From Bacteroidales bacterium (GTDB lineage: Bacteria > Bacteroidota > Bacteroidia > Bacteroidales > DTGW01), in contig JAOAFU010000058.1 in the NCBI GenBank assembly GCA_026416115.1, forward strand, positions 18,850 through 82,849: DNA of 64,000 nucleotides, given 5' to 3'. Positions 18,951-49,034 of this stretch are shown piece after piece (the stretch's first letter is position 1; each line of letters starts with the position of its first letter). Below the pieces are notes generated by a model. That model was not told where the DNA came from, ran no database searches, and was given only the letters and a program-made list of their open reading frames with translations. The translations under genes were made by a program, and so were the position numbers.

Positions 18951-18993
18951 TATTAAAAAATGCTTACATTTGAGACTCCTTTTCAACGGCTCA

Positions 18994-19524
18994 ATGAACG
19001 TAGGAAGCAATGCCCATAATGCTGAGGTTCTAACATGGTTCAAAGAAATATTTGACACCTACTACGATAGTATTCGCAACTACGCATGGTACAAAACAGG
19101 TAGCACTGCCCTTGCCGACGATATTGTTCAAGAAGTCTTTTTAAAATTATGGCAGATGCGGAGCAAGATTGAACCAGCCACGATAAAGCCTCTGCTTTAT
19201 ACAATTGCTACAAACCTTATCAAAAGTCACTACCGACATTTGAAGGTAGTTTATCGATTCGAAAGAAGAAGCAAAGAAGAGGATATAGGTATTATTCTAA
19301 ACTCAGCCGACGAAGCGTTAAGAATTGAAGAATTTCAGTCTCAGCTCGAAACACTTCTCTCGCAAATGCCTGCTGGAGCCAGAGAAACACTACTTATGAG
19401 TCGTCTCGAAAATTTGACTTACGAAGAAATAGCAAAACGTCTAGGCATAAGTATTAAGGCTGTTGAGAAACGTATGAGCATAGCATTGAAATTTTTGCGC
19501 GATAAAATTGACTATAAAATATGA
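18994..19524 (+). CDS. ECF-type RNA polymerase sigma-70 factor
   Basis: A region 2 pattern (ADDIVQEVFLKLW) and a region 4 HTH (LTYEEIAKRLGISIKAVEKRMSIALKFLR) are present. I placed the start at ATG 18994 rather than the track's TTG at 18970. A 4-nt overlap links it to the downstream FecR gene. Confidence 0.85.
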   Translation: MNVGSNAHNAEVLTWFKEIFDTYYDSIRNYAWYKTGSTALADDIVQEVFLKLWQMRSKIEPATIKPLLYTIATNLIKSHYRHLKVVYRFERRSKEEDIGIILNSADEALRIEEFQSQLETLLSQMPAGARETLLMSRLENLTYEEIAKRLGISIKAVEKRMSIALKFLRDKIDYKI

Positions 19525-20405
19525 ACGGGAACACGAATAAACAAAATAAAGCTGAAACTGATTTTTCGGCACTAGTCGATATGGTGCTGGACTCGGTTCG
19601 TGTCCCTTCTTCTTCACGCAGTAAAGAAGAAGCTTGGTTGCTTCTTGTTCAGAACATATCAAAACAATCTAATGAAATTGAAGAAAAAAAATCGAAAAAC
19701 CTGGGGTGGAAAATAAGTGTAGTTGCAGCATCAATATTACTAATCTTGACTTTTTCATACTTAAAATATTCTACAGTCTCTTTAAACACTTCACGTGGTC
19801 AATTTTTATCCTATTCATTACCCGATGGTTCAGAGGTTTTACTAAACGCTTGCTCCAAAATCAATTTCTCTCGCTACTGGTTTCTTAACCCTAGGGAAAT
19901 TATACTTGAAGGTGAAGCATTTTTCAGAGTGAAGAAAGGTAAAACTTTTATCGTAAAAGGACATGCGGGACATCGAGTTGAAGTTGTAGGAACTCAGTTC
20001 AATGTAAACTCGCGCGACAGTATTTTCAGTGTAACCTGTTTTGAAGGAACTGTAAAAGTAACTCATCGGTTAGGGAAATCTATTATGCTCATTAAAGGTG
20101 AAACTTCTACTATTAAAGGAACTGAATTTACATTTAAAAAATTAAATCAGATATCTAGTATACCTGCCTGGACTAATGGAGAATTTTATTTCGAATCTAT
20201 TCCCCTTCGAGATGTTTTTGATGAGCTAATGCGCCAATATAATATTAGCATCATTTCTCGTAATTTTAACCCTTCCGAACGATTTTATACAGGCTACTTT
20301 ACCAATAAAAACCTAAGGCAAGCGCTCGACTGGATTACAATGCCCATGAGTCTTCAATACTCATTTATTAACGACACTACCATACAGATTTTCCCTGCGG
20401 AATAA
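19521..20405 (+). CDS. FecR-family anti-sigma factor / transmembrane sensor
   Basis: 294 aa with one TM (WKISVVAASILLILTF). The FecR core is LPDGSEVLLNACSKINF...EGEAFFRV...VEVVGTQFNV. Confidence 0.85.
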   Translation: MNGNTNKQNKAETDFSALVDMVLDSVRVPSSSRSKEEAWLLLVQNISKQSNEIEEKKSKNLGWKISVVAASILLILTFSYLKYSTVSLNTSRGQFLSYSLPDGSEVLLNACSKINFSRYWFLNPREIILEGEAFFRVKKGKTFIVKGHAGHRVEVVGTQFNVNSRDSIFSVTCFEGTVKVTHRLGKSIMLIKGETSTIKGTEFTFKKLNQISSIPAWTNGEFYFESIPLRDVFDELMRQYNISIISRNFNPSERFYTGYFTNKNLRQALDWITMPMSLQYSFINDTTIQIFPAE

Positions 20406-20416
20406 TACTGCCGGTC

Positions 20417-23032
20417 ATGAATAATACTTGTCGAAAGATATTACCAATCTGGCTTATTTTAATCATCCCCCTTTTAACCCTTCATGCACAGGTAAAAATT
20501 AATGAAAAATTCGACCACGTCCTTCTTGAAGATGTCCTTAAAAAAATCAATCAAAAGTATGGCATTAAGTTCGCTTTCGACGACCAGTTAGTTCAAAACG
20601 TATATATTACTGTTAACATAAAATCCGAACCACTACCCAAAGCTCTTGAAAAAATATTGTCTGAAACAAATTTGGAAGCAATCCCAGTCAATGAGGTTTG
20701 GATCCTCAGAAAACGCACTTTTCAAAAGGATAAACGAATAGGACGAAACCGGATGGCTTTAGTTAACGATAAACTGTCGGGCGAATCGGTTCCTTATGCT
20801 CGTATTTCTATCGATAATAAGCCTATTACTACAGATAACAGGGGAATTTTCGTCTTACCTCCGTTACTTAAGGATACCGTAACAATTAGGGTTACTTCTC
20901 CAGGATACAACACACAGACGTTAATAGTAGCTCGAACCGATTTACAAAATCAGTATGTTATTGTAGAACTCAGCCCCGAGACGTTTTTTGATTCCATCAC
21001 GCTATCTACTATATATGAAGTTGGAGATAAAATGGGTGAAATCATTGTTAATGCAAGAAATGTAAATTGGTTACCTCAGCTTCATACACTCGACGCTCTT
21101 GCTCCGCTATTGCTCGTACCGGGCATTGATGCAACTTTCGAAAACACCGATCGTCTTATTGTACGTCATCAAGGCTCGGACAAAAATTTAATTACCCTCG
21201 ATGGATTTAATATCTACCAAACCGAGCACTTCTTTGGGGCAATCTCCGCATTTAACATCAACGCTGTTAAAGATATTCGCATACGACGTGGTGGATTAGA
21301 TATTTCACAAGGAGGGCGGACTTCATCGATGATTGAACTTACCGGAAAAACTGGAAATAATAAAAGGACATCGGCTTCGGCTGGTGCAGATATGCTACTA
21401 GCACATGCAACTTTGGAAGGACCAGTTGGTAAGGATTTTACCTATTTTATCTCAGCTCGACATTCGCTTACAAATTATTACCTATCGCCTTTGTATTTTC
21501 AATTACTGAAAAATATTCTTTCCGAAGATATATCATTTCGCCAAAAATTGACTGTATTCGCAACAGATACCGCTCCATCCTCTCTACAATTTTACGACAT
21601 AAATGCTAAAATATCTTTCCATCCGTCAAAATTCGATCTCATTACATTAAGTGGCTACCTTTCGAACGATTTGCTTGATTTTAAACTTAATGGCGTAAAT
21701 AAACACATTACAGAAAATGCTACATGGGGAAATAAGGGTATAGGTTGGCAATGGTCGCGACAATGGAACGAAGTAGTAAGTCATCGATTTAGTATTGGAT
21801 ATTCTTCGTATAATCTCGAATATTTTCATCACGACACTACCCTTCGTCGCAGATTTAGACAGCGCGATACTATTTTAAAAAACTACGATATCGAGAATCA
21901 ATTACGTGATATAAACCTTAACTTTTCTTCAACTTTGAAAATATCCGAACATCACACAATTGAAAGTGGCTTTAATTACAACAAAATCGACATTAATACC
22001 AACGAATCGTACTTGCAAACCAATAATCAGCTTAACATTATAGATACATCCAGGATTTATCAATTTAATCCGGCTATAAGCTCGGCTTGGATACAGTATA
22101 CAGCAAGCTACGGCATACTACGTGCTTTAAGTTTTGCTTTTCGAGCCGAATATCCCTCTATTGTCGGTAAAGTATACTTAAATCCAAGATTCGAAGGATA
22201 TTTAAATCTATCCCCTTCATTAACTTTAAAAGCTTCGGCAGGTACCTACCGTCAGTATGTATCTAAAATCCTACAGGTGGGCAGTAGCTATCGAAACTTA
22301 TGGATTGCTGCCGATGGAAAAAATTTTCCGGTTATCAGATCCGACAAAGCTTCGGCAGGAATTACCTGGCGCAATAACCAAAATTACTACTTCGATCTCG
22401 AGGCTTACTTGCAAAAAACATCAGGTATAGTATACATGCAAAGAAATATTCGACGAACAAGTAACCAATTAAAGGCAAGCTACAAAATCTATCAGCTCGT
22501 TAACCATTCGTCTGGTATAGACATAATGGCTGGAAAAAAGTGGAATTTTCTCGAAACATGGGTTTCCTATAACTTTAGTCAATCAACAAATCAATCCGAT
22601 CTTTTGAATAACGGAAAACCCTATCCATCAATCGACGATCACCTGCACGAGCTTAAAATTGGAACCGTATATTGGTGGAGAAAATGGTCGCTTGCAGCAA
22701 CGTGGATATACGGTTCGGCAAGGCCATGGGACGAAATTAAGTTTACTTCCTCATTACAACTTAGTCCCGACTATAATAAAAATGCTTCCCGACTACCCTC
22801 CTATCATCGCCTCGACGCTTCACTAGGTTATTCGATTCACATTAAAAAATCGAAACTCGATTGTGGCATAAAAGTCTTTAATTTGTACAATCAAACTAAT
22901 ATACTATCACGAATTTTTACCCTCACCGAAACTCCTCTGCTAGACTATATACAGGGTAAACCCTTTTACACTTATCAGGAGAATCAAGGAATGAGCCTCG
23001 CATTTAATCTATACGTTAATTGGTCGTTTTAA
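20417..23032 (+). CDS. TonB-dependent receptor with an N-terminal STN signalling domain (FecA-like transducer); no SusD partner
   Basis: 871 aa. The STN-like N-terminus is LEDVLKKINQKYGIKFAFDDQL...LEKILSETNLEA. A CarboxypepD_reg-like segment and plug motifs (LVPGID, ITLDGFNIYQ) follow. The protein ends with the terminal aromatic YVNWSF. Confidence 0.8.
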   Translation: MNNTCRKILPIWLILIIPLLTLHAQVKINEKFDHVLLEDVLKKINQKYGIKFAFDDQLVQNVYITVNIKSEPLPKALEKILSETNLEAIPVNEVWILRKRTFQKDKRIGRNRMALVNDKLSGESVPYARISIDNKPITTDNRGIFVLPPLLKDTVTIRVTSPGYNTQTLIVARTDLQNQYVIVELSPETFFDSITLSTIYEVGDKMGEIIVNARNVNWLPQLHTLDALAPLLLVPGIDATFENTDRLIVRHQGSDKNLITLDGFNIYQTEHFFGAISAFNINAVKDIRIRRGGLDISQGGRTSSMIELTGKTGNNKRTSASAGADMLLAHATLEGPVGKDFTYFISARHSLTNYYLSPLYFQLLKNILSEDISFRQKLTVFATDTAPSSLQFYDINAKISFHPSKFDLITLSGYLSNDLLDFKLNGVNKHITENATWGNKGIGWQWSRQWNEVVSHRFSIGYSSYNLEYFHHDTTLRRRFRQRDTILKNYDIENQLRDINLNFSSTLKISEHHTIESGFNYNKIDINTNESYLQTNNQLNIIDTSRIYQFNPAISSAWIQYTASYGILRALSFAFRAEYPSIVGKVYLNPRFEGYLNLSPSLTLKASAGTYRQYVSKILQVGSSYRNLWIAADGKNFPVIRSDKASAGITWRNNQNYYFDLEAYLQKTSGIVYMQRNIRRTSNQLKASYKIYQLVNHSSGIDIMAGKKWNFLETWVSYNFSQSTNQSDLLNNGKPYPSIDDHLHELKIGTVYWWRKWSLAATWIYGSARPWDEIKFTSSLQLSPDYNKNASRLPSYHRLDASLGYSIHIKKSKLDCGIKVFNLYNQTNILSRIFTLTETPLLDYIQGKPFYTYQENQGMSLAFNLYVNWSF

Positions 23033-23190
23033 TTTGTTTTAAAACAAAAGCATGACTGTTGATCAAGATTTATCTCTCGAGCAAGGATACCACCTTCAAA
23101 GGATATTTACTATACACTCTTAGTAAAACGAGTCTCAACACCTATCATAGGTAAAAATACGTAGGTAAAAATTCTAAGTTAAGAAAAGCA

Positions 23191-23217
23191 TTATTACCCA
23201 GACAAAACGGGTAATAA
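23191..23217. promoter_or_regulatory. Perfect 9-bp inverted repeat (TTATTACCC-N9-GGGTAATAA) upstream of the Hdr-like operon
   Basis: Read directly from the sequence. It lies 54 nt upstream of the first ATG (23271) and about 30 nt upstream of the candidate -7 box. Confidence 0.4.
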
Positions 23218-23245: not shown

Positions 23246-23253
23246 TATTTTTG
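23246..23253 (+). promoter_or_regulatory. Candidate -7 promoter box TATTTTTG for the Hdr-like operon
   Basis: Matches TAnnTTTG and ends 17 nt before ATG 23271. Confidence 0.35.
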
Positions 23254-23270
23254 ATAAAAATAACCAATAA

Positions 23271-23981
23271 ATGGGCAATCTGGCGGATCGGCTTAAAGCG
23301 GATCTACACTATCGCGAAGGAATGCGTGCATGTATTAACTGTGGCACTTGCACAGCAATATGTCCAGCTGCCGAGCACTACGATTACGACCCACGTAGCA
23401 TTGTTGAGCTGGTTCAACGTGGCGACGAAGAGGAGCTTGAAACCCTTCTTAAAAGCGATGCTATATGGTACTGTGGCGAATGTATGAGCTGCCGCACTCG
23501 TTGTCCTCGAAATAACACGCCTGGACTAATTATTATGGCTTTACGAGCTCTGGCGCAGGAAACAGGATTTTTTACCGAATCGGAAAAAGGGCGCCAACAA
23601 ATATACCTTAAGCGTACTATAGGACACGATATCTTAAAAACAGGCTATTGCGTGTATGCCGAAGGTTTGGGTACCGACACCCATCCCGAGCAAGGCCCCA
23701 TATGGGACTGGCGACAAAATAACTGGAAAGCTATCATGGAGCGTTTAGGAGCAAATTATCAGAAACCCGGACCTGGAGCGATGCGCCAAATACCCGAAGA
23801 AGCTCTTAACGAATTACACAAAATATTTGAAGTTACTGGAGCTTTCGAACGCTTCGAAAAAATCGAACAATTCTCCGAGAAAAAAGCCAAACAACTCGGT
23901 CTTCAATGGGACGATTCGCTTAATAATGAATACATTAAGCAACTATACAATGGAAACTCAAACGAAAATTCTAATAACTGA
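23271..23981 (+). CDS. HdrC-like 4Fe-4S dicluster protein
   Basis: 236 aa with two ferredoxin-type motifs, CINCGTCTAICP and CGECMSCRTRCP, in the spacing typical of heterodisulfide reductase subunit C. Confidence 0.75.
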   Translation: MGNLADRLKADLHYREGMRACINCGTCTAICPAAEHYDYDPRSIVELVQRGDEEELETLLKSDAIWYCGECMSCRTRCPRNNTPGLIIMALRALAQETGFFTESEKGRQQIYLKRTIGHDILKTGYCVYAEGLGTDTHPEQGPIWDWRQNNWKAIMERLGANYQKPGPGAMRQIPEEALNELHKIFEVTGAFERFEKIEQFSEKKAKQLGLQWDDSLNNEYIKQLYNGNSNENSNN

Positions 23982-23983
23982 CC

Positions 23984-25054
23984 ATGAAAAACAGGGGGAA
24001 ACAGCTCATATGGCAAAATTATCAGAAAGATATAGCTGACGATCATTTTTTTTACGTTCGAAGTTGTATACGTCAAAATTTTTTCCCCGGCGCCGAAACA
24101 ACCTTCCTACGCATTCTGAAAGATGTATTAAATAAGGATGTGTACGACGATCCTTCACATACCACCTGCACCGGTATTGGCTATCATACCGATATAGTGC
24201 CATTAGAAACTACCATGACAGTTGTTGCACGTCAGTTTGCCCTGATGACCGAAAAAGGTTATAAAAATTTTATCCCCTCGTGTGTTACCTCATTTGGCCT
24301 TTATCTCGAAATACTCGAAACCTGGCATAATTATCCCGAAGTACTCGAAAAAACGCGCAGTAACCTGATGCTGGCTACAGGACGTTCGTTCGTACTACCC
24401 GAAAATATAGTGCACGCCAGCGATGTTATTTATAAGTTCAGATCCGAAATAGCTAAAAAAGCTAAATACAGGCTTGTTAATATCCATACAGGAAAGCCCC
24501 TGAAGGTTGTTGAACATATTGGCTGCCATTACGCTAAAATGTTCCCCGACAAATCTGTCGGAGGTGCCGAATTTCCCCGCGTACTATCGGGAATTATTGA
24601 AGAATGGGGAGGCGAGGTTATCGATTATCCCGAACGTCGACATTGCTGCGGTTTCGGCTTCAGACAATACTTTATAAAGGCTAACAGAGGTTATACTTTT
24701 TCGAGCGTGAAAAAAAAATTCGATTCAATGTCACCTTACGAACCCGACCTAATTGTTACTAACTGCCCGGGTTGTAATGTCTTTCTCGACAAAGGCCAAT
24801 ACGTTATCAGCGAACAGGAAGGAATAGTTTACAGCCGCGATGGATATGGTATTCCTGTTCTTACATTCGAGGAGCTCACAGGTGTTGTGCTTGGTTTCGA
24901 TCCCTGGGATATTGGCCTTCAGGTTCATCAGGTAAGCGTCGAACCTTTACTCGACAAAATAGGGGTTAAATACGATATCCAAAAAAAATATACCGATAAA
25001 AATAATAGACTATTGGGTAAACCAGTTAAACCAACCTTATTAAAAACATTATAG
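23984..25054 (+). CDS. HdrB-like CCG-domain protein
   Basis: 356 aa with cysteine-rich CCG-type motifs (HTTCTGIGY, IPSCVTSFG, RRHCCGFGF, TNCPGCNVF). It starts 2 nt after the HdrC-like stop. Confidence 0.75.
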   Translation: MKNRGKQLIWQNYQKDIADDHFFYVRSCIRQNFFPGAETTFLRILKDVLNKDVYDDPSHTTCTGIGYHTDIVPLETTMTVVARQFALMTEKGYKNFIPSCVTSFGLYLEILETWHNYPEVLEKTRSNLMLATGRSFVLPENIVHASDVIYKFRSEIAKKAKYRLVNIHTGKPLKVVEHIGCHYAKMFPDKSVGGAEFPRVLSGIIEEWGGEVIDYPERRHCCGFGFRQYFIKANRGYTFSSVKKKFDSMSPYEPDLIVTNCPGCNVFLDKGQYVISEQEGIVYSRDGYGIPVLTFEELTGVVLGFDPWDIGLQVHQVSVEPLLDKIGVKYDIQKKYTDKNNRLLGKPVKPTLLKTL

Positions 25055-25060
25055 AAAATT

Positions 25061-26080
25061 ATGCCACGAATAGCTGTTATAGGTGGAGGTGTAGCGGGAA
25101 TGGAAGTAGCCTTCCGACTCTCCCAACTGAGCTTCGAGGTCGATATAATCGAAAAGTCATTTATTTTGGGGGGACATGTGCACAAGTGGCAAAAGCTTTT
25201 CCCCGATTTCACCCCTGCGCATCAAATTGTTGACCAGCTTAAAAATCAGTTGCGAGATAAAGTCAATATTCTGTTCGGAAACGAAGTAATAAAGGCCGAA
25301 CAAGAAAATACCAAGCATATCCTATACCTTTCCGACGGTACAACTCAAGTTTACGACGCCATTGTTATAACTACGGGCTTTAAGCTTTTTAATGCGAATC
25401 GAAAAGAAGAATACGGATATTCGGTATATCCAAATGTAATAACCTCGTCGGAACTGGAGGAATATTTTCAAAATGATAAACCAATTATAACAAAAGAAAA
25501 CAGAATAGTCGAAAGGATAGCTTTTATTCACTGTGTAGGATCGCGCGATGAAAAGGTAGGTAATCGACACTGTTCAAAAGTTTGCTGTATAACTGCTGTA
25601 AAACAGGCCATCGAGGTAGCGCAACGCAATCCCGATGCTGAAATTTACCTGTTTTATATGGATTTGCGTATGTTTGACCGAAAATTTGAAGATTTATACC
25701 TTCAAGCTCAAACCGAATATGGAATTAAATTCGTAAGAGGACGTTTATCGGAGGTTTCGGAAAAAGCGGACTCGCGCTTATTTCTTAAGCTCGAAGACAC
25801 CCTCCTGGGTAAGCCCCTTCGATTAACCGTCGATCTTGTAGTACTAATGGTTGGCATGGAAACAGCAGAAAACTCCATCCAATTAGCAAACGCTTTAGGT
25901 ATCCCAGTTGGGCAGGATAATTTTATGCTACCTGTAAATTGCCATTCGCAAAAAAATATCACCGGCAATCGAGGCATTTTTGTAGCTGGTTGCGCCAGTG
26001 GACCAAAGTCGATCGGAGAAACATTAGCCGATGCGCGATCGGCTGCTCTCGAGGTATATAGTTATTTAAATTGTAATTGA
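25061..26080 (+). CDS. HdrA-like FAD oxidoreductase (short form lacking ferredoxin domains)
   Basis: 339 aa. The dinucleotide fold is IAVIGGGVAGMEVA. CVGSRDEKVGNRHCSKVCC fits the HdrA/QmoA CxGxRDx(6-8)CSxxCC signature. Confidence 0.75.
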   Translation: MPRIAVIGGGVAGMEVAFRLSQLSFEVDIIEKSFILGGHVHKWQKLFPDFTPAHQIVDQLKNQLRDKVNILFGNEVIKAEQENTKHILYLSDGTTQVYDAIVITTGFKLFNANRKEEYGYSVYPNVITSSELEEYFQNDKPIITKENRIVERIAFIHCVGSRDEKVGNRHCSKVCCITAVKQAIEVAQRNPDAEIYLFYMDLRMFDRKFEDLYLQAQTEYGIKFVRGRLSEVSEKADSRLFLKLEDTLLGKPLRLTVDLVVLMVGMETAENSIQLANALGIPVGQDNFMLPVNCHSQKNITGNRGIFVAGCASGPKSIGETLADARSAALEVYSYLNCN

Positions 26081-26086
26081 TAAAAC

Positions 26087-26422
26087 ATGCCAAACTTTGG
26101 TTTTTCGATACATAGCCCAACACATATCGATCTCGATAAAAATTATCGAACCATATTCAATTATGTTAAGGTTAAAGAACCTTCCATTCAAAAATGTATT
26201 TTTTGTGGATCTTGCTCTGCAACCTGTACAGCTTCGAACTATTCGGCTATGAGTTTGCGAAAAGTCAATTTACTCCTCCATAGAGGAATGGTTCAAGAGG
26301 TTAGAAGCTTAACTGAACAATGCTTGCTCTGTGGCAAATGTTATCTTGTTTGTCCACGCAATGTGAATACGCGCAGAATTATCCTGCTGATTCATGAAGC
26401 TCTTAAAATGCCGTTATCATGA
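26087..26422 (+). CDS. Small 4Fe-4S dicluster ferredoxin-like protein
   Basis: 111 aa with CIFCGSCSATC and CLLCGKCYLVCP. Confidence 0.7.
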   Translation: MPNFGFSIHSPTHIDLDKNYRTIFNYVKVKEPSIQKCIFCGSCSATCTASNYSAMSLRKVNLLLHRGMVQEVRSLTEQCLLCGKCYLVCPRNVNTRRIILLIHEALKMPLS

Positions 26423-28230
26423 AGTTCGACTGGTTTGTTTTACCTTTTCTTAGTGGCCTTTCATTTGTTACCGTATACACCTCTGTAAAGTTTTACAGGT
26501 GGATAAATAAGCTTTCGAGAGGTGAAAAAGCTCTGTTAAAAAAATATATCTTTAGTCGCTCAATCTGGACTTCTATCAAAGAGATATTTTCTGAATCCTT
26601 GTTTCATCTTAAAATATTTAAAACCCACCCTCTTTTAGGATATATGCACGCAAGCCTCGCTTTTGGATGGTTTTTGCTTATTGTCCTCGGAAATATAGAG
26701 GTAAAATTTTACTCAGAGTACTCGATCAACCCTCCCTACGTTCCGATATTTTTAAATTTTTTTGAACCAACAACAGCCCCCAATTTTTTTGGCCGTGGGT
26801 TTCGTTTTATTATGGATTTTCTCCTGCTAATAATTTTAAGTGGAGTGGCATTAGCTTTTTTCAAACGCTTTGTGCCCTCGAAATTTGGCATGAAACAAAA
26901 CATGCGACACCGTTGGTTCGACCGAATAGCCATATTTTCGCTTTGGTTTATATTTCCAGCTCGCCTTGTGGCCGAGAGTTTATCCGCTTCTATATACCAC
27001 AACGGAAGCTTTTTAACTAATACACTGGGCAAAATGATGTCCTTCCTTCCTGCCGAAACTTTACTTTACCCATCGTGGTGGGCTTATTCTATAATTTTGG
27101 GTATTTTCTTTTTTGCATTACCGTTTTCGCGATACATGCACATTCCAACAGAAGTATTGCTTATACTTATGCGTAACGCAGGCATACGTTCAAGGTATTT
27201 TTCACATCCTTACCAAGAAGTAGAAACTGAAGCCTGCTCGAGGTGTGGTATTTGCATCGACTCGTGCCAGCTTACATCAATTGGTTACGCAATTCAACCC
27301 TCATATTATCTCCGAACGATTCGCTACAACGAATTACACCGCGAAATTACAGACAACTGTTTATTGTGCGGTCGATGTGTCGAAGCTTGCCCGGTAGGTA
27401 TTTTTTCAACCGACATCCGCAGACACGAACGTACCCTTCAACACGAAATGCGAACGGTTAAATTCAAGTTTAATCAAAATAAATTTTCAAACACTTATAC
27501 CGAAGTACTTTACTTTGCTGGGTGCATGACACATCTCACCCCTGGAATTAAAAAGGCAATGACCACTATTCTCGAACACTCAGGTTATTCGTGGCAAATA
27601 CTCGACGAGGATGAGAATATCTGCTGTGGTCGCCCTCTGCTCCTGGCTGGACAAATATCGGCCGCTAACCAGGTGATTATACATACCCGAACCCAGATCG
27701 AGAAAACCAGAGCCAAAATTTTGGTAACCTCTTGCCCTATATGCTACAAAACATTTAAAGAAAATTACCGACTCAACATGCTTATTATGCATCATAGCCA
27801 GTTTATTGATCATCTATATACCCACAATAGAATCGCTACCCAATATCGCAATGTAAATGTAAAGTATCACGATCCTTGCGAACTTGGTCGGGGAGCAAAT
27901 ATTTATGTTGAACCAAGAAGGGTAATAGAACAAATAGCCAACTTACTCCCTTCGTCAAGCGAGAAAAATAAAGCACCATGCTGTGGAGGAAGTTTGGGTA
28001 ACACTATGTTGCAAGCCGAAGAAAAAAAACTAATCGCTAAAAGAGCCTTATCAGAGATGAACCTAACTTCGGCCGACTTACTGGTAACAGCGTGTCCTTT
28101 ATGCCTTAAAACCTTTTCGGCAGTTTCTTCGGTATCGGTTAAAGACCTTTCTCAACTAGTAGCCGAAAATATATGCGAAAAAATACCCAATAACGCTCAA
28201 AAAATACACAAGGCCGTAGAAACCCTTTGA
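26419..28230 (+). CDS. Membrane-anchored Fe-S oxidoreductase: NarI/HdrE/DsrM-like TM domain fused to an HdrD/DsrK-like 4Fe-4S + double CCG domain
   Basis: 603 aa with about 5 N-terminal TM helices carrying His in YMHASLAFGW and RYMHIP. The Fe-S motifs CSRCGICIDSC and CLLCGRCVEACP follow. Two CCG modules come next (NICCGRPL/TSCPICYKTF and APCCGGSLG/TACPLCLKTF). A 4-nt ATGA overlap joins it to the upstream ORF. Confidence 0.75.
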   Translation: MKFDWFVLPFLSGLSFVTVYTSVKFYRWINKLSRGEKALLKKYIFSRSIWTSIKEIFSESLFHLKIFKTHPLLGYMHASLAFGWFLLIVLGNIEVKFYSEYSINPPYVPIFLNFFEPTTAPNFFGRGFRFIMDFLLLIILSGVALAFFKRFVPSKFGMKQNMRHRWFDRIAIFSLWFIFPARLVAESLSASIYHNGSFLTNTLGKMMSFLPAETLLYPSWWAYSIILGIFFFALPFSRYMHIPTEVLLILMRNAGIRSRYFSHPYQEVETEACSRCGICIDSCQLTSIGYAIQPSYYLRTIRYNELHREITDNCLLCGRCVEACPVGIFSTDIRRHERTLQHEMRTVKFKFNQNKFSNTYTEVLYFAGCMTHLTPGIKKAMTTILEHSGYSWQILDEDENICCGRPLLLAGQISAANQVIIHTRTQIEKTRAKILVTSCPICYKTFKENYRLNMLIMHHSQFIDHLYTHNRIATQYRNVNVKYHDPCELGRGANIYVEPRRVIEQIANLLPSSSEKNKAPCCGGSLGNTMLQAEEKKLIAKRALSEMNLTSADLLVTACPLCLKTFSAVSSVSVKDLSQLVAENICEKIPNNAQKIHKAVETL

Positions 28231-28279
28231 AGCTATAAATAATTTTTTCGAAGTACTTTTGCCTTGAAAATCAAAAAAC

Positions 28280-30575: not shown

Positions 30576-31370
30576 ATGAACTTTCATCTGCCATTTATTC
30601 CTTCCCGAAGCAGTAAACCACGAAAAAGTGGTTTAACTATGGTTATGGACAAGGGACTAAGCGTTAGAGAAACCGAAGATTTTATTTCTTCTGCTGGCGA
30701 ATTTGTCGATTTTGTTAAATTTGGATTTGGCACCAGCTTGATTACCAAAAACCTCGAAGAAAAAATTAAGCTCTACAACGATGCAAACATTCGCCCATAC
30801 TTCGGTGGCACGTTATTCGAAATGTTTCTTGTTCGAGGAATGTACGATGAGTTTCGCAGGTTTATCGATCGATATCGTCTGGACTTGATTGAAATATCCG
30901 ATGGATCTATCTCCTTACCCCATGAAGAAAAACTGAAATATATCCGAGAGCTTTCCACTCAGGCTACAGTTATTTCGGAAGTTGGCAGTAAAGTAGCGGG
31001 TATTGTTATCTCGCACGATAAATGGGTGGAAATGATGAAGCTTGAGCTCGAAGCCGGTTCATACAAAGTAATTGCCGAAGCTCGCGAGAGCGGTAATATT
31101 GGTATATATAATCCCGACGGTACCGCAAATAAAGAGCTTATAAACGATATTATCGAACATGTCGATACCGACAATATTATCTGGGAAGCACCAAATAAAT
31201 CGCAACAAGTTTGGTTTATCAAATTACTGGGCTGCAATGTCAACTTAGGCAATATTGCTCCTAATGAAATTATTGCCTTAGAAACTTTACGTTTAGGCCT
31301 TCGTGGCGACACCTTCTTCCAATTCTTACCCGAAGAAATCACTCGCCAATACATCATGAAACATAGCTAA
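30576..31370 (+). CDS. comA: Phosphosulfolactate synthase (ComA family)
   Basis: 264 aa. KPRKSGLTMVMDKGL...VDFVKFGFGTS...IRPYFGGTLFE...DLIEISDGSI matches the (2R)-phospho-3-sulfolactate synthase family pattern from memory. Confidence 0.7.
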   Translation: MNFHLPFIPSRSSKPRKSGLTMVMDKGLSVRETEDFISSAGEFVDFVKFGFGTSLITKNLEEKIKLYNDANIRPYFGGTLFEMFLVRGMYDEFRRFIDRYRLDLIEISDGSISLPHEEKLKYIRELSTQATVISEVGSKVAGIVISHDKWVEMMKLELEAGSYKVIAEARESGNIGIYNPDGTANKELINDIIEHVDTDNIIWEAPNKSQQVWFIKLLGCNVNLGNIAPNEIIALETLRLGLRGDTFFQFLPEEITRQYIMKHS

Positions 31371-32180: not shown

Positions 32181-32963
32181 TTAAAACTGCTTGTATTTTG
32201 CAAAATACGTATCAATTTCAGGATGAAGTTCAATCCCAACTTTTTCAAAAACTTCAAGTAACTGAACATAAGTTCCAGCACCACCGAGAAAATCCCAAAA
32301 TTCATCTGCAACTTTTAATTCATAATTCAAATCCAACATACCTCTCATAGTCCAACGATTATAAGGTTGTGGTTCGTATGGATTATAAGGTATAGCAATA
32401 AGAGAGTGTATTAGCACATTGGGGTTATCAGCAAGTACAGCAGCAACCCATTCTAACAAAGTCCTTTTGTACCCTTTAAACTCACCGATATTGGGTTTTG
32501 CAGTTTTCAAATCGATTAAAAAAATCGTGCCATCATGAGCTACAAGTTTTAAGTCAACTTTAGTTAACTTAACATTCTTCATTTCTCCAAGCCGACAAAC
32601 ATTTTTTAATTCAGCAATTTCAGTAAGTTTATTTGGATCCGTTTTGGCCGAACTTAATCTATCAATTATGGATTGGATAGAAATTTGAGCTTCAGAACTT
32701 ATCTTTTCCCCTGCAATTTGTTGAATTGAAACGGACCTAAAATTTACTTCGGCAATTGCTTTTGCTACTGGTTCAAATATACTAGTTCCAAAATTGGTAT
32801 TTAGCGAGTGAATGAAAGAAAATAATGCCATCCTGTCTTTACCTAACAATCTTGTGTGAAATGGCATTGATATAGATTCGGGCTTATAGTTTTGAAGTTT
32901 GTTAAGCAAGCTACTTTTGACAATATTTTCAATCTTGAGGATTTGTTGAGAAGTTAGGGACAT
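32181..32963 (-). CDS. Putative type II restriction endonuclease (resembles what I recall of the TdeIII family)
   Basis: 260 aa. Its start overlaps the methyltransferase stop by 1 nt (TAATG). The stretch MPFHTRLLGKDRMALFSFIHSLNTNFGTSIFEPVA resembles TdeIII-type REases from memory only. The compositional context is AT-rich. Confidence 0.5.
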   Translation of the reverse strand: MSLTSQQILKIENIVKSSLLNKLQNYKPESISMPFHTRLLGKDRMALFSFIHSLNTNFGTSIFEPVAKAIAEVNFRSVSIQQIAGEKISSEAQISIQSIIDRLSSAKTDPNKLTEIAELKNVCRLGEMKNVKLTKVDLKLVAHDGTIFLIDLKTAKPNIGEFKGYKRTLLEWVAAVLADNPNVLIHSLIAIPYNPYEPQPYNRWTMRGMLDLNYELKVADEFWDFLGGAGTYVQLLEVFEKVGIELHPEIDTYFAKYKQF

Positions 32964-34543
32964 TATTTTGCTTTTAAGTGAAAGATGATTTCAGCATATG
33001 CTCCTTTATCTTTTTCGGTCCGATTTAATACTGGTCGTTTAAATTGATTAACTATTTTCATACCAGCCATATCAGCAATTGTAGGGTACAAGTCGTACTT
33101 GTCATTAGCCACCAAAAAAACATCGTAATTCTCAACCAGAAATTTTTTCACATTATTCAAAACTTCGCTTACACCTTGTACATAACTTTGTCGAGCTTCT
33201 TTTCCCTGACCTTTATAAAGGGGGCCTATTTCCAACTCATCTTTTCTTTCAAAACCGAAAAGATCATATGCATATGCATGTTGTTCATGATAATCAATAA
33301 GCCCTACGTATGGTGGAGAAGAAAATATCCCTTTAATTTTTTGTTTTCTAACTAATTCCGCAAAATTTGGGTGTTTTTTTTCGAGTTCAGTAATAATATC
33401 TATAGTTCGACTATCTCCGGTTAAACAATACTGAAAAGTATTAGTTCTTAATTTCTCGAACTCAGCAATTCTTTTCACAGTATCTTTTGAGTAGGTTTCC
33501 CACCATTTAAGAATTGAAAATAAAGGCTTACAAATTTTCCCATGCTTTGAACAGTAGTAGGTAGAAGTAACTGGCTCGATTAAAGTTGCTAAATCGGAAT
33601 GAGTAGTGGCTCGACAACTACGCATTGTACGACTTAAAATAATACTGATAATTTTTTTTGTATTGTTGTTCTGGATTTTTTTAATTTCGCTAAAAACAAA
33701 TTCTATTTCATCACGAACATGCTGTGAATACCACTTATCGAGGAAAGTTTTATTGTTATTCTGTAATAGCTTAATACCATATTGTCCGACCAAGTTTGTA
33801 TATATGGGTAAAAATTCTTTCTCTTTTGCTTTGCCATATTCTTTTTCGTTAATCAAACCTTGCCGAACTTTATACTTGTATTCGGGAACAGGAAAATATT
33901 TATTATTAAATTCATTAAGCAGTTGTAGCAATTTTTCTTCAAACTCTATCGTATGACAATTTGAAAGAAAATTTTTTAATGCCAATGTTATTCTTTTTAT
34001 CTCTCTCTGAACATCATTTAAATCGTACCGATCTAACTTACAATTAGAAATAAGTGAATTAAAAGCAGAAATATCAACTCCTATAGCGTGCATTCCTAAT
34101 TCTGAAGCCTGTACCAACGTAGTGCCACTTCCTGCAAAAGGATCAAGAATAATATCGCCTTGTTTAAAATAAACTTCGGTTTTAAAACTATCCGTATGAT
34201 TATCAAGGAAATATTCGACCAATTGAGGAATAAATTTTCCTTTATATGGATGCAGCCTATGAACATGCTTTGTTGTTTCTGCTTCCTTATACTGATCAAA
34301 AGATAAGGCCCAGTTTAAGTCTTCACCCAATTGTTCTTTCCATTCAACTTCTCTTCTCCCGTTTAAGGACTTATAATACTTCACTAAGTCGTCCATTGAA
34401 ACTAAAGCAGAGCCATTGTCTCCAATTTTTCGGACACGACCATACTGGATTAAATAAGAAATATTGGATGTTGTAACTTTTTTGCCGGTATATTCAGATG
34501 CCCACTTGCTTGCCTCCTTAATGGTAAATAACCTATCTGGCAT
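32963..34543 (-). CDS. Site-specific DNA methyltransferase (amino-MTase, N6-adenine or N4-cytosine) with an N-terminal HTH-like segment
   Basis: 526 aa. The AdoMet motif I is ILDPFAGSGTT. About 260 aa later comes catalytic motif IV, FSSPPYVGLIDY. This motif I, long insert, motif IV order is an alpha-class-like arrangement. Confidence 0.8.
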   Translation of the reverse strand: MPDRLFTIKEASKWASEYTGKKVTTSNISYLIQYGRVRKIGDNGSALVSMDDLVKYYKSLNGRREVEWKEQLGEDLNWALSFDQYKEAETTKHVHRLHPYKGKFIPQLVEYFLDNHTDSFKTEVYFKQGDIILDPFAGSGTTLVQASELGMHAIGVDISAFNSLISNCKLDRYDLNDVQREIKRITLALKNFLSNCHTIEFEEKLLQLLNEFNNKYFPVPEYKYKVRQGLINEKEYGKAKEKEFLPIYTNLVGQYGIKLLQNNNKTFLDKWYSQHVRDEIEFVFSEIKKIQNNNTKKIISIILSRTMRSCRATTHSDLATLIEPVTSTYYCSKHGKICKPLFSILKWWETYSKDTVKRIAEFEKLRTNTFQYCLTGDSRTIDIITELEKKHPNFAELVRKQKIKGIFSSPPYVGLIDYHEQHAYAYDLFGFERKDELEIGPLYKGQGKEARQSYVQGVSEVLNNVKKFLVENYDVFLVANDKYDLYPTIADMAGMKIVNQFKRPVLNRTEKDKGAYAEIIFHLKAK

Positions 34544-36432: not shown

Positions 36433-39400
36433 CTACTGCTTCAAGAATGGCAAAGTCAAAATATTTTCTTTATTTCGAAGCACTAAGATATATCGGCCAC
36501 TACGTAGTCCCGCAATGTTAATTTCTGCCTTAGTATCGTTGAACGAGAGAGTACATTTCCCTACAATTTTTCCCGATGCATCAACTATTATAGCATCAGT
36601 CCACTTACTGGGAGTATAATTCAAAAATATTTTTTCCTTGGCAGGATTGGGGAAAAGACTCTCTTGAATACCGGGAGAGGAAGTAGATGTAATAACCTCT
36701 GCTACCGACGACAACATTGTTCCATACACTTCGAATTCCCACAGCGAATAGCCCCAGCCAGTATTTCGTGTTGTGCAGTATAGCCGAAGATACCTTCCAT
36801 TGATACCTGAGAAATTATGAGTTTCATTTCCACCGGTGCTGTTGGTGATTGTTTTAACTGTTGTCCAGCTTATACCATTGCTCGATACATCGATAGTATA
36901 ATTTTTAGCCGAGGCGGTCTCCCACCGTAAAATAACCTGTGATATATTGTAATTGGCTTGCAGGTCGATAATAACCCACTGGGGATCTGACCATTCGCTT
37001 CCCCAGCGGGTATCGGTTTTGCCATCATTAATCAAATTTGCGCTTAACCCCGACTGCGTAGACGAAACTGTAACTGGTTTGTTGAGAGCAATATTTCCTG
37101 TTGGCAATGAATTTACAGGTGTGCCATATACCTCGAATTCCCACAGCGAATAACCCCAACCGGTATTACGAGCAGTTCCGTAAACACGAATATAACGCCC
37201 ACTCACCGCAGTGAAATTATGGGTTTCAGCTCCTCCAGTACTATTGGTTACTGTTTTTACATTCGTCCAGCTATTTCCATCGGCCGATACATCGATGGTA
37301 TAATTTTTAGCCGAAGCTGTTTCCCAACGAAGAATAACCTGTGCAATGTTAAAGTTACCCTGTAAATCAATCGTTATCCATTGCGGATCGGACCAATCGC
37401 TTCCCCAGCGGGTATCGGTTCTCCCATCGTTAACCCAAGCTGTGCTCAAACCCGTTTGTGTCGATGATGCCGTTACCGGCTTATTTAATGCAATATTACC
37501 TGTATTTGCGACAACCGTAACTTGAACCTCATCGGAGGCGCTGGCTCCTGCATTATCGGTAACTGTTATCCTAAATAGGTAGGTACCTGCCGATAGGTTT
37601 GAAAGTGAAAGGGTCGGACTATTTTGCCCAGCAAGCGTAGCATTTGATGGCCCACTAACTTGTGTCCACTGATAACCTGTAATATTACCGTCGACATCGG
37701 AAGCTGTGGCAGTTATTGTTAACGAGTTTACTGGTAAAGTAATGGTTCTATCCTCACCAGCATTAACAGTAGGAATAATATTGCCGTTTGTTCCAAGAGT
37801 TAACGTACATGTTGTAGTTGTAGAGGTTCCGTCGTTATCATACGCAACTACAGAAATAAGATGCAAACCTGTAGTCAGATTTGGTAATCTAACTGTATAG
37901 GGCGAAACCGTTGCAGTACCGAGTATAGTGCTGCCTTCACGAAATTCTACTCGGCTAATTGTACCATCATCATCGTGGGCATAGGCACATAGAGTTACAA
38001 CTGTTCCGGGTGCAAATAAGGTGTTATTTTCGGGATATAATATTGACAGGTAGGGGGGACGGTTAATACGTACTTTTGCTTCACCCATTACGTTACCCGC
38101 ACGAGCCGTCACCTTGTAGTTGCCATATACCTGTGAGGTATAATTGCCTGAGGTTGTAATGCTTCCCCTACTACATGTCCAGGTTGGATTTATAGCCATT
38201 TCTTCGCCCAGCTGATTATAACCCTTGGCAGTAAAGGTAATAGGCTGATTAAGTGCAACAACAGCCTGTTGTGGAGTTACTCTAATGCGGGTAAGTGAGG
38301 GAATAATAGATTGTCCATATACCTCAAACTCCCAAAGCGAATAACCATAGCCTGTATTCCGTTGTATGCCATACAAACGAATATAACGTGCTGTAGCATT
38401 AATATTAATTTCTTCTCTTCCTCCCATTCCGTTGGATGTAGAATAAACCGTCGTCCAATTTTGATAATCGTTCGAGGTTTCGATTCGATAGGCCTTAGCC
38501 GATGCAGCCTCCCATACCAAAACCACTTTCGATAAATTGTATTGTGCTTGTAAATCTATACTTATCCACTGAGGATCTACTCCTTGCACACTTTCCCAAC
38601 GAGTATCAGGTAATCCGTCGACGGCTTTATCGCCTTTGGATCCATCTCCAATACTCGAAGAAGTTTGCACGGGTTTTCGCCAGGCAAGATTTACTTCGCT
38701 CAGTGGCCTTATGCTTACATAGGCTGTATCGCGAACATTTCCCTTTCCGGCAAAAATCAAAAAATTCCCTGTTTGACTTGCCTTGAAAATCCCCGCAGCA
38801 GTAAAAGTACCACCACCCGTAGCAGTCCAAGTCACATCGCCTTTATAGTCGACTCCAAATTGGTCTTTACCTACAAAATCGAACACATATTCATGGCCAA
38901 GTGGTATAACTAAAGGATTTTGTTGCGTGGTAAGAGGTAAAATATCGATCTGCATCAAACGTTTTGCTTCTTCTACCACTACAGTAGCCTTGGCAACAAG
39001 TCCGTTGGCCTGTGCCACTACTGTAAATGAAGGTTCAAGATACATGCTTCCAGTAGTCGGTGTATAAACTCCGCTCGACGAAATACTACCTCTTCCAATC
39101 ACCGACCATTGCGGGTTTACACTCATCAGGTTTCCAAACTGATCATAGCCTTTTACTGTAAATTGTTGCTTCGAGGTATCCTTTACTATAGCAAAAGTGG
39201 GTTCGATTAAAATGGTAGTAAGTACAGAAGTTCCTGTTCGTTGAGGTGTACCAAAAACTTCAAACTCATAGATGGAATTTGCCCATCCGGTACCTCGTTT
39301 TTTAGCTAAAAGTCTTACATATCGACCAGTTGCAACAACGGGAATGACCTCGGTACCACCATATCCATTTGTCTGCGAATAAATAGTGGTAAAAGTGCTA

Positions 39401-47649: not shown

Positions 47650-48873
47650 TTATTCGGCCAGCTGAGGCATCCCTTGTAGTTCGGCTGCAAACGCCTGCCC
47701 TAATTCAATAAACTTTTGACTCTTTTCGTCGTAAGGGAAAAATTTGGCTTTTACCCCTTCACAAAATATTTTGAATTTTAAATTTTTAAGATGATTCTCG
47801 ATTAATCCAGGTGCTTCCCCACTCCATCCATACGAACCAAAAGCAGCTGCCAACTTACCCCTATCGCGAATAGGATTGACTACCGAAAATAGCTTGTAAA
47901 TGGGTAGCAAGGTATTCTGATTAATCGTTGGAGAACCTACTAACAAAGCATCGCTTTTAGCAAGTTGCTCTTCCATCTCCCCAATCAGCATATGCTCAAT
48001 ATCGGCAACTTCCACCTCGAAATTACTCACCATACGAATTCCTTCGGCTATCATCTCAGCCATTTTGGCTGTATATCCATAAGCCGATACATAAGCAATA
48101 AATACCCTTTTAATCGGATGTTTTTCTGTTTCTTCGATGTATTGTTTCGAATACTGTTCCGAAAGTGCCACCTTCTCTTGCCAAGTACTACGTAATATGG
48201 GACCATGACCATTTGCAATTACCGATATCTCCAGCGGTTTGATTTTTTCGATCGCCCGAAGCATAAATTTGCTGAATGGCTTAAGTATTACATCAAAATA
48301 ATATTTGAACGCTTCGGAATAATCGCCCACTAAATCATCGTACATGGCAGGATGCGAGAAATGTGCACCAAACGAATCGCAGGTAAATAAAACTTTATCC
48401 TCTGCTAAGTAGGTATAAATTGTATCGGGCCAGTGTAAATTAGGTGCACCGATAAACTTCAGCGTTTTATTGCCAAGGCTAAGGGTATCGCCATCCATGA
48501 CCTTTAACGACTTAAATGGCTGACCTACAATTTCCGAAAGATAGTTTAGAGCCTGACCACTGCCTACAACTGTAGCATTTGGAGCAACCTTTAATAAATG
48601 TTTCAGCGCGCCTGAATGATCAGGCTCGGTGTGATTACAAACAATATACTCTATCTCTTCAGGATTACACAATTCTTTTATTTTGGCTATAAACTCATCT
48701 GTAAAGCCTTCCTTAACAGTTTCAACTATGGCTTTTTTTTCGGCGTTTATATAATAAGCATTATAGGTTGTCCCAAATTTGGTTTCCATCACAATGTCGA
48801 ATGTCACCAAATCGGGATCGAGAACGCCTATCCATTTAACATCTTGAGTAACATCTAGTATTTGACTCTTCAT
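47650..48873 (-). CDS. Flavodiiron protein (FprA / A-type flavoprotein; O2 or NO reductase)
   Basis: 407 aa. The metallo-beta-lactamase-like N-domain carries the diiron motif NHTEPDHSG. The C-terminal flavodoxin-like domain begins [17 protein letters not shown]. Confidence 0.85.
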
Positions 48874-49034
48874 ATAGCTTATTTTAAAGTTTAATTTGAT
48901 TTTTGCCTGTTCAATTTAAATGCCAAAAGTAGCTATTTTGTTCAATGAAATGCAAGAACAATACACTTATATGGCAAAATTGCGCTCGATTCTATATTAT
49001 CAATATTGTATTTTTGATAAAAATTATTCACACT

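Follow-up and report, generated by a model that had tools for sequence, protein, structure and literature searches.

Five co-directional genes at positions 23271-28230 of a 64,000-nt stretch of a Bacteroidales genome (hereafter the window) were found to encode the parts of a heterodisulfide reductase (Hdr)-like, membrane-anchored flavo-iron-sulfur complex, which is probably quinone-linked. This had been proposed in an initial annotation made from the sequence of the window, and the proposal is supported by comparison with curated protein models, by invariant histidines in the transmembrane domain and by the unity of the operon. We designate the five products, in gene order, C, B, A, F and D. 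The C-B-A module is similar to that of the sulfur-oxidizing sHdr system, B carries a single canonical CCG site, and D belongs to the HdrF/EMO/EtfD class of membrane proteins, all of which the initial annotation had left out. The interpretation that we prefer, and to which we give nearly an even chance, is that the five proteins would form a third type of sHdr-like complex, anchored in the membrane, that couples a thiol or sulfane-sulfur reaction in the cytoplasm to menaquinone.

Organization and cofactor sites of the five-gene cluster

The first three gaps between the genes are 2, 6 and 6 nt in the open reading frame (ORF) list, and the stop codon of F overlaps the start codon of D as an ATGA (the junction reads ...tatcATGAagt...), exactly as first described (Table 1). 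The motifs that had been quoted were also all present, namely CINCGTCTAICP and CGECMSCRTRCP in C, RRHCCGFGF and TNCPGCNVF in B, and CVGSRDx7CSKVCC in A. Profile searches against Pfam, which had been recommended, detected Fer4 and 4Fe-4S dicluster families in C and F (including Fer4_8 in C), a single CCG stretch in B (residues 177-268), Pyr_redox_2 in A, and two CCG domains together with Fer4 families in D. The GC content of the cluster, 0.40-0.41 compared with ~0.38 for the whole window, does not stand out. Invariant ligands were found for flavin adenine dinucleotide (FAD) and one [4Fe-4S] cluster in A, for two [4Fe-4S] clusters each in C, F and D, for one canonical non-cubane cluster and a three-cysteine site in B, and for two canonical non-cubane clusters and one bis-histidine heme in D.

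The five genes are conserved as a unit

Conservation was examined in 84 related genome loci, taken with flanks of ~10 kb on each side and amounting to ~1.5 Mb in total, and gene order was scored with a simple ORF caller and phmmer in 85 sources (the 84 loci plus the window). The full C-B-A-F-D order was present in 57 of the 85 sources, and the remaining 28 contained same-order subsets, attributable to contig ends or ORF-calling misses. Median gaps across the loci were 2, 4, 0 and -11 nt for C/B, B/A, A/F and F/D, respectively, and D followed F with an overlap or near-zero spacing in 72 loci. This five-gene arrangement is far beyond chance. A permuted order, C-F-D-B-A, was observed in five metagenome loci (L163, L168, L177, L182 and, in part, L126), which carry a shorter C (~201 aa), and from this order C, F-D and B-A appear to be the modules of the cluster. 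The persistence of the same five genes in a permuted order is independent evidence that they belong together; the conserved order, the permuted variant and an operon-specific promoter element, described below, together support the unity of the operon. Three long contigs (3.8-4.5 Mb) whose D is 47-56% identical to that of the window contained the same five genes in the same order, and the flanks of the cluster in these distant contigs were entirely different from those in the window.

A protein search with D matched thousands of proteins over their full length (~600 aa, 44-70% identity), the named ones being "(Fe-S)-binding protein" entries from Bacteroidales. A survey of one genome per GTDB species found a relative of the cluster in at least 596 species; the best 80 of these were all metagenome-assembled genomes (MAGs) of Bacteroidales/Bacteroidia, and their record titles named fens, groundwater and aquifers, sediments, digesters and sulfidic springs. 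When 1.84 billion representatives were searched exhaustively, ~27 full-length D clusters at 50% identity were obtained, with scores from 592 down to 334 bits. Below 334 bits there was a gap to ~160 bits, where the matches were EMO-like (640-730 aa) or HdrD/GlpC-like (370-410 aa) and covered the CCG part only, showing that the D family is compact and discrete. When the ten most divergent full-length representatives were looked up, every named one belonged to Bacteroidia (a Rikenellaceae MAG, Breznakibacter sp. and the isolate Marinilabiliaceae bacterium JC017). By these matches, the complex appears to be confined to the class Bacteroidia.

The C-B-A module resembles the sulfur-oxidizing sHdr system

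B had been described as HdrB-like with CCG-type motifs. The motifs are there, but only one CCG site is canonical: the C-terminal site is complete (C181, C221, C222, C261 and C264), and the N-terminal site is degenerate, consisting of C28, C62 and C100 only (C-x33-C(T)-x37-C(xTS)), with TCT instead of CC and CVTSFG instead of CxxC. All eight cysteines are invariant in 72 homologs. We used as reference a type I sHdr locus (L085), located via the 6TJR sequence, with the gene order DsrE3-C1-B1-A-H-C2-B2-orf156-LbpA and with TusA and SoxYZ in the vicinity. The sHdrB1 of this locus has the N-terminal peculiarities of B as well as CCGFGFR, so that the degenerate N-terminal CCG site and CCGFGFR of the B1 type are both found in B; the motifs common to the two proteins are (T/S)C(T/S), CxTS(F/Y)G and CCGFGFR. 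They differ at two cysteine motifs, SC(I/V)RQ in B versus SCGQC in sHdrB1 and NCPGC versus DTGC, B retaining a canonical C-terminal CxxC and lacking the CGQC of sHdrB1. A metagenome scan for DNA encoding CCGFGFR(Q/H) returned 120 loci, which, apart from a few without a recognizable match, were either Bacteroidia C-B-A-F-D clusters or sHdr loci of type I or II. The type II loci carried TusA, DsrE3, LbpA, H, B3, EtfAB and EMO (e.g., L098, L155, L171 and L190).

A neighbor-joining tree of 38 HdrB-type sequences (338 columns, 100 bootstraps) recovered the Bacteroidia B proteins as monophyletic (bootstrap 100) and the sHdrB1 proteins of types I and II together as monophyletic (bootstrap 100), and it joined these two groups against methanogen HdrB, sHdrB2 and the CCG domain of D with a bootstrap of 88. 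In this topology B is the sister clade of sHdrB1. Of the phylogenetic placements called for earlier, that of B comes from this tree, and A was placed by scores and marker residues only.

A aligned over its full length with sHdrA of Hyphomicrobium denitrificans (6TJR, 349 aa; residues 3-334 versus 3-338, E 6e-55), whereas methanogen HdrA matched in the core only (residues 100-332 of A versus 323-561, ~200 bits). Three of the five domains of HdrA, the N-terminal, inserted and C-terminal ferredoxin domains, are missing from A. What it contains, an FAD-binding thioredoxin-reductase fold and one [4Fe-4S] cluster (C158, C171, C175 and C176, all four invariant), is the minimal HdrA architecture of sHdr. 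In the HdrA of M. thermolithotrophicus, E356 and K409 have served as a criterion for telling bifurcating enzymes from non-bifurcating ones (PMC12054007). Their equivalents in A, E133 and K181, do not vary among 121 members of the family; at the second of these flavin positions type II sHdrA has Lys and type I sHdrA has Asn. E133 and K181 are compatible with bifurcation by A but are not proof of it.

In C, the eight cluster cysteines and C127 are invariant in 69 homologs. With phmmer, C scored 79 bits against sHdrC1 over nearly its full length and 54 bits against methanogen HdrC over residues 17-119 only, suggesting that it is closer to sHdrC1 than to methanogen HdrC. The eight cysteines of F are invariant in 72 homologs. 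BLAST aligned F with only the Fer4 part of sHdrC2 and sHdrC1, and F resembles the ferredoxin half of HdrC/sHdrC2; no match was found between F and sHdrH (282 aa), which itself has no Pfam domain.

These similarities raise the question of whether the cluster is a genuine sulfur-oxidizing sHdr, which would convert protein-bound sulfane sulfur to sulfite with the aid of LbpA, lipoate-assembly and sulfur-transfer genes located elsewhere in the genome. Its B falls within the B1-type clade otherwise common only to sHdr, the C-B-A order is identical to shdrC1B1A, and the soluble half of D is the counterpart of C2 plus B2 or of B3; type II systems already use a fused B3 and the membrane protein EMO (PMC11094781). 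The published definitions are more demanding: the syntenic core of type I is shdrC1-B1-A-H-C2-B2, and type II consists of shdrC1B1AHB3 and etfAB in one syntenic cluster (PMC11094781). The Bacteroidia cluster conforms to neither. It has C1-, B1- and A-like genes in order, but there is no H, the ferredoxin F standing in its place, and F and D replace C2B2; there is also no ~430-aa B3 and no recurrent etfAB, the membrane fusion D alone standing for C2B2 or B3, EtfAB and EMO. Identity between the sHdr and Bacteroidia proteins is only 25-28%.

The accessory genes looked for are also missing within ~10 kb of the cluster. According to the sHdr literature, sHdr is always accompanied by LbpA and sulfur transferases, namely DsrE proteins along with TusA and rhodaneses, and the sHdr loci from the CCGFGFR scan do carry accessory genes next door. 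With the L085 proteins as queries, phmmer gave zero matches at E <= 1e-3 to LbpA, DsrE3, TusA, sHdrH or Sulf_transp among ORFs of >=55 aa in the 84 loci, with their ~10-kb flanks, and the window; rhodaneses were not searched. The earlier claim that the window lacks lipoate-binding-protein and sulfurtransferase genes therefore stands for LbpA, DsrE and TusA. The hosts are saccharolytic, fermentative anaerobes of the Bacteroidia, not known sulfur oxidizers, and no Sox or Dsr genes were present in the loci seen. On balance, with the two deviating cysteine motifs of B added, we consider genuine sulfur oxidation by sHdr improbable.

D is a membrane fusion of the HdrF/EMO/EtfD class

D combines a five-helix HdrE/NarI-like membrane domain (His77, His241 and Arg150) with two [4Fe-4S] clusters and two complete CCG sites, the composition of an HdrD module. 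The fusion of ~5 transmembrane helices to an HdrD-like module, predicted earlier for this 603-aa protein, agrees with Pfam and with an AlphaFold2 (AF2) model, which together give five transmembrane helices (residues 5-30, 71-98, 123-151, 166-193 and 212-236), two Fer4 motifs and two CCG motifs. The AF2 model (predicted local distance difference test score, pLDDT, 76) was used for topology only, and its global Foldseek TM-score was 0.35 despite a strong E-value. H63, H77, H241, R150 and all 18 cluster cysteines are 100% conserved in 82 homologs; the proposal had been made dependent on conserved heme-ligand histidines in the transmembrane domain, and H77 and H241 bear it out. The third invariant histidine, H63, is on the cytoplasmic face in the model.

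The best match of D in the PDB by sequence was EtfD of M. smegmatis (9ojn; E 4e-14, 55 bits). Foldseek also placed 9ojn at the top (E 9e-17), followed by LutA and HdrB for the CCG part. The only heme b of EtfD has His78 and His241 as its ligands, with Arg137 bound to a propionate (PMC13083937). The phmmer alignment paired H77 of D with His78 and R150 with Arg137, suggesting that H77, H241 and R150 correspond to the heme ligands and the propionate-binding arginine of EtfD. Five transmembrane helices, two [4Fe-4S] clusters and two CCG domains in one chain make D a member of the HdrF/EMO/EtfD architecture class, the known members of which are quinone-reducing anchors. (Methyl)menaquinone is the acceptor for EMO and EtfD (PMC13083937; preprint 10.64898/2026.08.18.745454), and HdrF-type proteins are encoded beside electron-providing flavoproteins such as GlpAB or EtfAB (PMC2702500).

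D might accordingly be taken for the ETF:menaquinone oxidoreductase (EMO/EtfD) of the cell, serving beta-oxidation, with its adjacency to hdrCBA being meaningless. EtfD is its best structural and sequence match, and in one locus (L004) the cluster lies next to etfAB and acyl-CoA dehydrogenase genes. However, this locus and one other also encode, within a few kb, a separate protein that is EMO-like (693-727 aa, with transmembrane, Fer4 and CCG parts) and scores 53-55 bits against D (L004:1202-3283 and L013:798-2981); in L004 it is on the opposite side of the cluster from etfAB. With such a paralogue present, D is not simply the EMO of the cell. The D family is separated from EMO-like proteins by the gap from 334 to ~160 bits, and identity to D is ~17-30%, with good alignment outside the heme region limited to the CCG part. 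Moreover, etfAB is not a recurrent neighbor; the partner of D is HdrCBA plus a ferredoxin instead of EtfAB, and D stays with F in 72 loci and is still accompanied by the other four genes where the order is permuted. We regard a role as the EMO of the cell as very improbable.

Comparison with curated families and other Hdr-type systems

Scores against NCBIfam equivalog models were several-fold below the cut-offs, and no cut-off of a curated Hdr, Qmo, DsrK, Lut, Glc, Glp or Tfr family was reached. The values were 91 bits for HdrC (cut-off 350), 148 for HdrB (450), 247 for HdrA2 (1100), 49 for QmoC (48.6 before rounding; 300), 113 for TfrB (385), 90 for LdhH (800), 66 for GlpC (278), 53 for DsrK (400), 25 for GlcF (333) and 22 for LutB (445). 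The proteins are therefore outside the characterized orthologous groups, as the initial annotation had supposed. The complex belongs to none of the defined families and is best described as working like a type II sHdr or an HdrDE-like quinone-linked enzyme.

In addition to the core of A, with its E356/K409 equivalents, the likeness to methanogen HdrABC comprises the CxGSRDx7CSxxCC motif of A, the two [4Fe-4S] clusters of C and the non-cubane CCG sites; HdrB, however, has two complete CCG motifs and B one canonical site. D resembles HdrDE in joining an HdrD-like double CCG to an HdrE-like cytochrome, but it does so in one polypeptide. No mcr genes or genes for coenzyme M (CoM) and coenzyme B accompany the cluster, and ComA is not a conserved neighbor. 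The QmoABC complex, too, combines HdrA-like flavoproteins with an Fe-S module of the HdrC type and a menaquinol-interacting cytochrome b in the membrane. It differs in having two HdrA-like subunits, compared with one here, whereas CCG domains are present here, and neither aprAB nor sat is found nearby.

Proposed electron transfer and its alternatives

In the proposed mechanism, a soluble module of C, B and A with its FAD would handle a cytoplasmic sulfur-based substrate (a thiol, persulfide or disulfide), which would be bound at the non-cubane [4Fe-4S] site of B. Electrons would pass from C to the FAD and [4Fe-4S] cluster of A and from there by way of F and the four Fe-S clusters of D to one heme b, with menaquinone as the last acceptor. 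F and D would thus replace H, C2B2 or B3, EtfAB and EMO in a compacted third sHdr-like type. The favored direction would be from substrate to menaquinone, as in EMO, EtfD, HdrF and type II sHdr. Thiol or persulfide donors have midpoint potentials well below that of menaquinone, so that this direction would be downhill. It is also favored because EtfD and EMO, the characterized proteins with the architecture of D, reduce quinone with electrons from flavoproteins, as has been proposed for HdrF beside GlpAB or EtfAB, and because type II sHdr has been proposed to end at menaquinone, passing electrons there via EtfAB and EMO (PMC11094781). Because A keeps both residues tied to bifurcation, splitting or merging of electrons with a low-potential partner may take place at its flavin.

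Several points weigh against this mechanism. We infer the contact from A through F to D, menaquinone use by these hosts is taken from general knowledge of Bacteroidia, and with no LbpA, DsrE3, TusA or sHdrH linked to the cluster there is no clue to the substrate. The neighbor-joining tree included few outgroups, with methanogen sequences rebuilt from printed alignments, and the AF2 model is poor in the ferredoxin domain of D (pLDDT <50 at residues 275-350). The EMO of S. aciditrophicus has an additional distal "twin heme" whose ligand, His233, precedes His251 by 18 residues (preprint 10.64898/2026.08.18.745454). At the same distance ahead of H241, a position matched to His233 by this offset without structural superposition, D has an invariant tyrosine (Tyr223), and only one proximal heme appears assignable in D. 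A single proximal heme state has been associated with quinone reduction uncoupled from a proton gradient (preprint 10.64898/2026.08.18.745454). Finally, the distal non-cubane site of EMO and EtfD is degenerate and acts as a wire (PMC13083937), whereas D keeps both CCG sites canonical, as do HdrB, HdrD and sHdrB2. D itself could therefore be a catalytic disulfide reductase, with the flow of electrons reversed.

The main rival explanation is a confurcating disulfide reductase that would operate like Qmo or like HdrABC in reverse. Menaquinol electrons entering via the heme b of D and electrons from a low-potential ferredoxin or flavodoxin entering via F would merge at the FAD of A, and a cytoplasmic disulfide or polysulfide would be reduced at B or at the double CCG of D, for thiol homeostasis or as an electron sink. 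Menaquinol (~-74 mV) alone cannot reduce ordinary disulfides (~-200 to -250 mV), and a second, low-potential donor would make sense. The completeness of both HdrB-type non-cubane sites of D, as in the catalytic HdrB, HdrD and sHdrB2 but not in EMO/EtfD (PMC13083937), is in keeping with such an enzyme, as are the E133/K181 pair of A, held to mark bifurcating HdrA (PMC12054007), and the anoxic, often sulfidic habitats of the carriers. However, the neighbor survey of the 84 loci found no linked hydrogenase, formate dehydrogenase, Flx, MvhD or ferredoxin-generating partner as a low-potential donor, and the ferredoxin domains missing from A are those that carry the low-potential branch of HdrA. In addition, the translational overlap of F and D suggests that they act in series rather than as two inputs, and the known proteins with the architecture of D are quinone reducers. 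We consider confurcation unlikely.

Returning to electron flow from substrate to menaquinone, a further reading, which we hold to be rather doubtful, is that of a 'type III' sHdr-like respiratory-type enzyme of anaerobic Bacteroidia. It would oxidize thiol or sulfane sulfur without oxygen or LbpA machinery and deliver electrons directly to menaquinone via its own heme b, and it might extend to flavin-based bifurcation to a low-potential carrier. If this reading is true, abundant polysaccharide-degrading heterotrophs of sulfidic sediments would have a hidden sulfur-cycling role, and the cluster would offer a minimal model for the function of B1-type non-cubane sites.

No description of this cluster was found in the literature searched, and an earlier mention may exist. 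Database labels for its parts are "(Fe-S)-binding protein" and "heterodisulfide reductase-related", and HdrA-like proteins retrieved with sHdrA are labeled "CoB--CoM heterodisulfide reductase subunit A family". Under permissive calling rules, shdrA with any shdrB and any shdrC suffices for sHdr (PMC13500833), and such rules would count the Bacteroidia cluster among the sulfur-oxidation systems despite its lack of the defining accessory genes. The cluster combines a B1-type catalytic subunit, a bifurcation-type flavin site and an HdrDE/EMO-type membrane anchor. It can serve to test the chemistry of B1-type sites, bifurcation by a minimal HdrA, and whether a double CCG in membrane fusions is a catalyst or a wire. 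Widespread in fens, aquifers, sediments and digesters and discrete as a family, it is also experimentally tractable, with JC017 as a cultured carrier.

Promoter and upstream elements

The features of the window are listed in Table 1. The -7 box upstream of C is of the Bacteroidetes type, for which the consensus is TAnnTTTG. The gene after D, truA, has its own TACTTTTG box, and a terminator-like scan found no terminator for the five-gene unit. The box before C and the separate truA box make the five genes look like one transcription unit.

Table 1. Positions of genes and sequence elements in the window
Feature	Position	Strand	Description
C	23271-23981	+	HdrC/sHdrC1-like subunit, 236 aa, 2x[4Fe-4S]
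B	23984-25054	+	HdrB-type subunit of the sHdrB1 kind, 356 aa
A	25061-26080	+	Minimal HdrA, 339 aa
F	26087-26422	+	2x[4Fe-4S] ferredoxin, 111 aa
D	26419-28230	+	Membrane fusion protein, 603 aa
-7 box of C	23246-23253	+	Bacteroidetes-type, TATTTTTG; 18 nt upstream of the C start codon; sequence read directly
Candidate operator	23150-23172	+	GGTAAAAATAC-GTA-GGTAAAAAT; diverged copy of the 38-nt element
Inverted repeat	23191-23217	.	TTATTACCC-N9-GGGTAATAA; perfect 9-10-bp stem; terminator-like scan and direct reading
-7 box of truA	28254-28261		TACTTTTG
ECF sigma factor, FecR anti-sigma, TonB-dependent receptor	18970-23032		Directly upstream of the cluster
ComA	30576-31370		Phosphosulfolactate synthase
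TdeIII restriction-modification pair	32181-34543	-	TdeIII-type endonuclease and N6/N4 DNA methylase
GH81 protein	36433-42549		Secreted, 2038 aa
Flavodiiron protein	47650-48873		ODP beta-lactamase fold and flavodoxin domain
GH53 protein	3209-5266		Type IX secretion tail
GH10 protein	48945-51146		Type IX secretion tail

A 38-nt element with the consensus nTAaGTATaAATACcccnnnnAAAatgGntTTaA, also written as the GTATAAATAC element, was found upstream of the C start codon in 47 loci in which C was called and in 4 without a C call. It lies ~40-60 nt upstream of a TAnnTTTG box, which was present downstream of it in ~45 related loci (e.g., TACTTTTG), and ~50-180 nt upstream of the hdrC-like gene in L009-L084. 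Its core is a 10-bp palindrome, GTAT(A/T)(A/T)ATAC, and its half-site TACCCC presumably resembles NarL heptamers. A position weight matrix of the element gave 52 matches of >=14 bits in 1.51 Mb, 51 of them directly upstream of this cluster, and no other targets that would mark co-regulated genes turned up in the 1.5 Mb. The element points to a dedicated regulator of the operon.

The candidate operator of the window is tentatively regarded as a copy of this element. Its core, GTA[AT]4TAC, is at 23151-23160; it scores below 14 bits, and its form is common only to L005. Between this upstream element and the -7 box sits the inverted repeat, followed by GTGGGTTTT and partly kept in L005, which could either terminate the upstream TonB-receptor gene or form a regulatory hairpin.

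A HisKA_3 sensor kinase with ~four transmembrane helices and no periplasmic domain is encoded together with a LuxR/GerE response regulator immediately upstream of the cluster, on the same strand, in 7-9 loci (e.g., L004:5014-6595, L012:4531-5478 and L058:5024-5671). This pair is a candidate for the operon regulator in those lineages.

Neighboring genes and genomic context

The neighborhood survey that had been suggested was carried out by clustering all flanking ORFs of the 84 loci. No substrate pathway was found nearby, and apart from a few recurrent neighbors the flanks were unrelated across loci. The recurrent neighbors were a 184-aa lipoprotein (46 loci), PurL (40 loci), membrane proteins, an M1 peptidase and DUF3788, and they probably reflect clade-level synteny rather than function. 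The 184-aa protein is a predicted lipoprotein without a Pfam match that is encoded on the same strand as D, a median of 159 nt downstream, in 46 of the 84 loci (e.g., L035:2499-3053); PurL comes next after it, in convergent orientation. The window itself lacks this lipoprotein. Thioredoxin-fold and AhpC-TSA genes lie beside the cluster in L001 and L003 and were set aside as not recurrent.

Phosphosulfolactate synthase starts the synthesis of CoM, and its gene, comA, lies 2.3 kb downstream of the cluster in the window (Pfam E 2e-89; NCBIfam 262 bits versus a cut-off of 280). A link of the cluster to ComA or a CoM-like thiol was considered and rejected: the TruA-TPR-ComA-AroE block is common only to the closest relatives, L005 and L173, and its presence was treated as coincidental.

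Pfam scans of ORFs of >=150 aa in the window identified polysaccharide utilization genes, including SusC/SusD and the glycoside hydrolase (GH) families GH35, GH53, GH81 and GH10, several with type IX secretion system tails, as well as CarB, the flavodiiron protein, BioB and the TdeIII restriction-modification pair. No dsr, apr, sat or mcr genes were present among them. The saccharolytic Bacteroidota setting described at the outset was borne out, and the host context is confirmed as that of a saccharolytic anaerobe. The flavodiiron protein fits the lifestyle of an oxygen-sensitive anaerobic host.

Directly upstream of the cluster, an extracytoplasmic function (ECF) sigma factor and a FecR anti-sigma factor are encoded with a TonB-dependent receptor that has STN and FecR_C-like N-terminal domains; this trio is not kept beside the cluster in other loci. 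Downstream, the TdeIII restriction-modification pair sits in the lowest-GC part of the neighborhood (0.326) and is likely a mobile cassette that ends the synteny with relatives. The GH81 protein also contains four F5/8 type C domains, PKD/Ig domains and a type IX secretion sorting tail, and such tails recur on the GH53 and GH10 enzymes.

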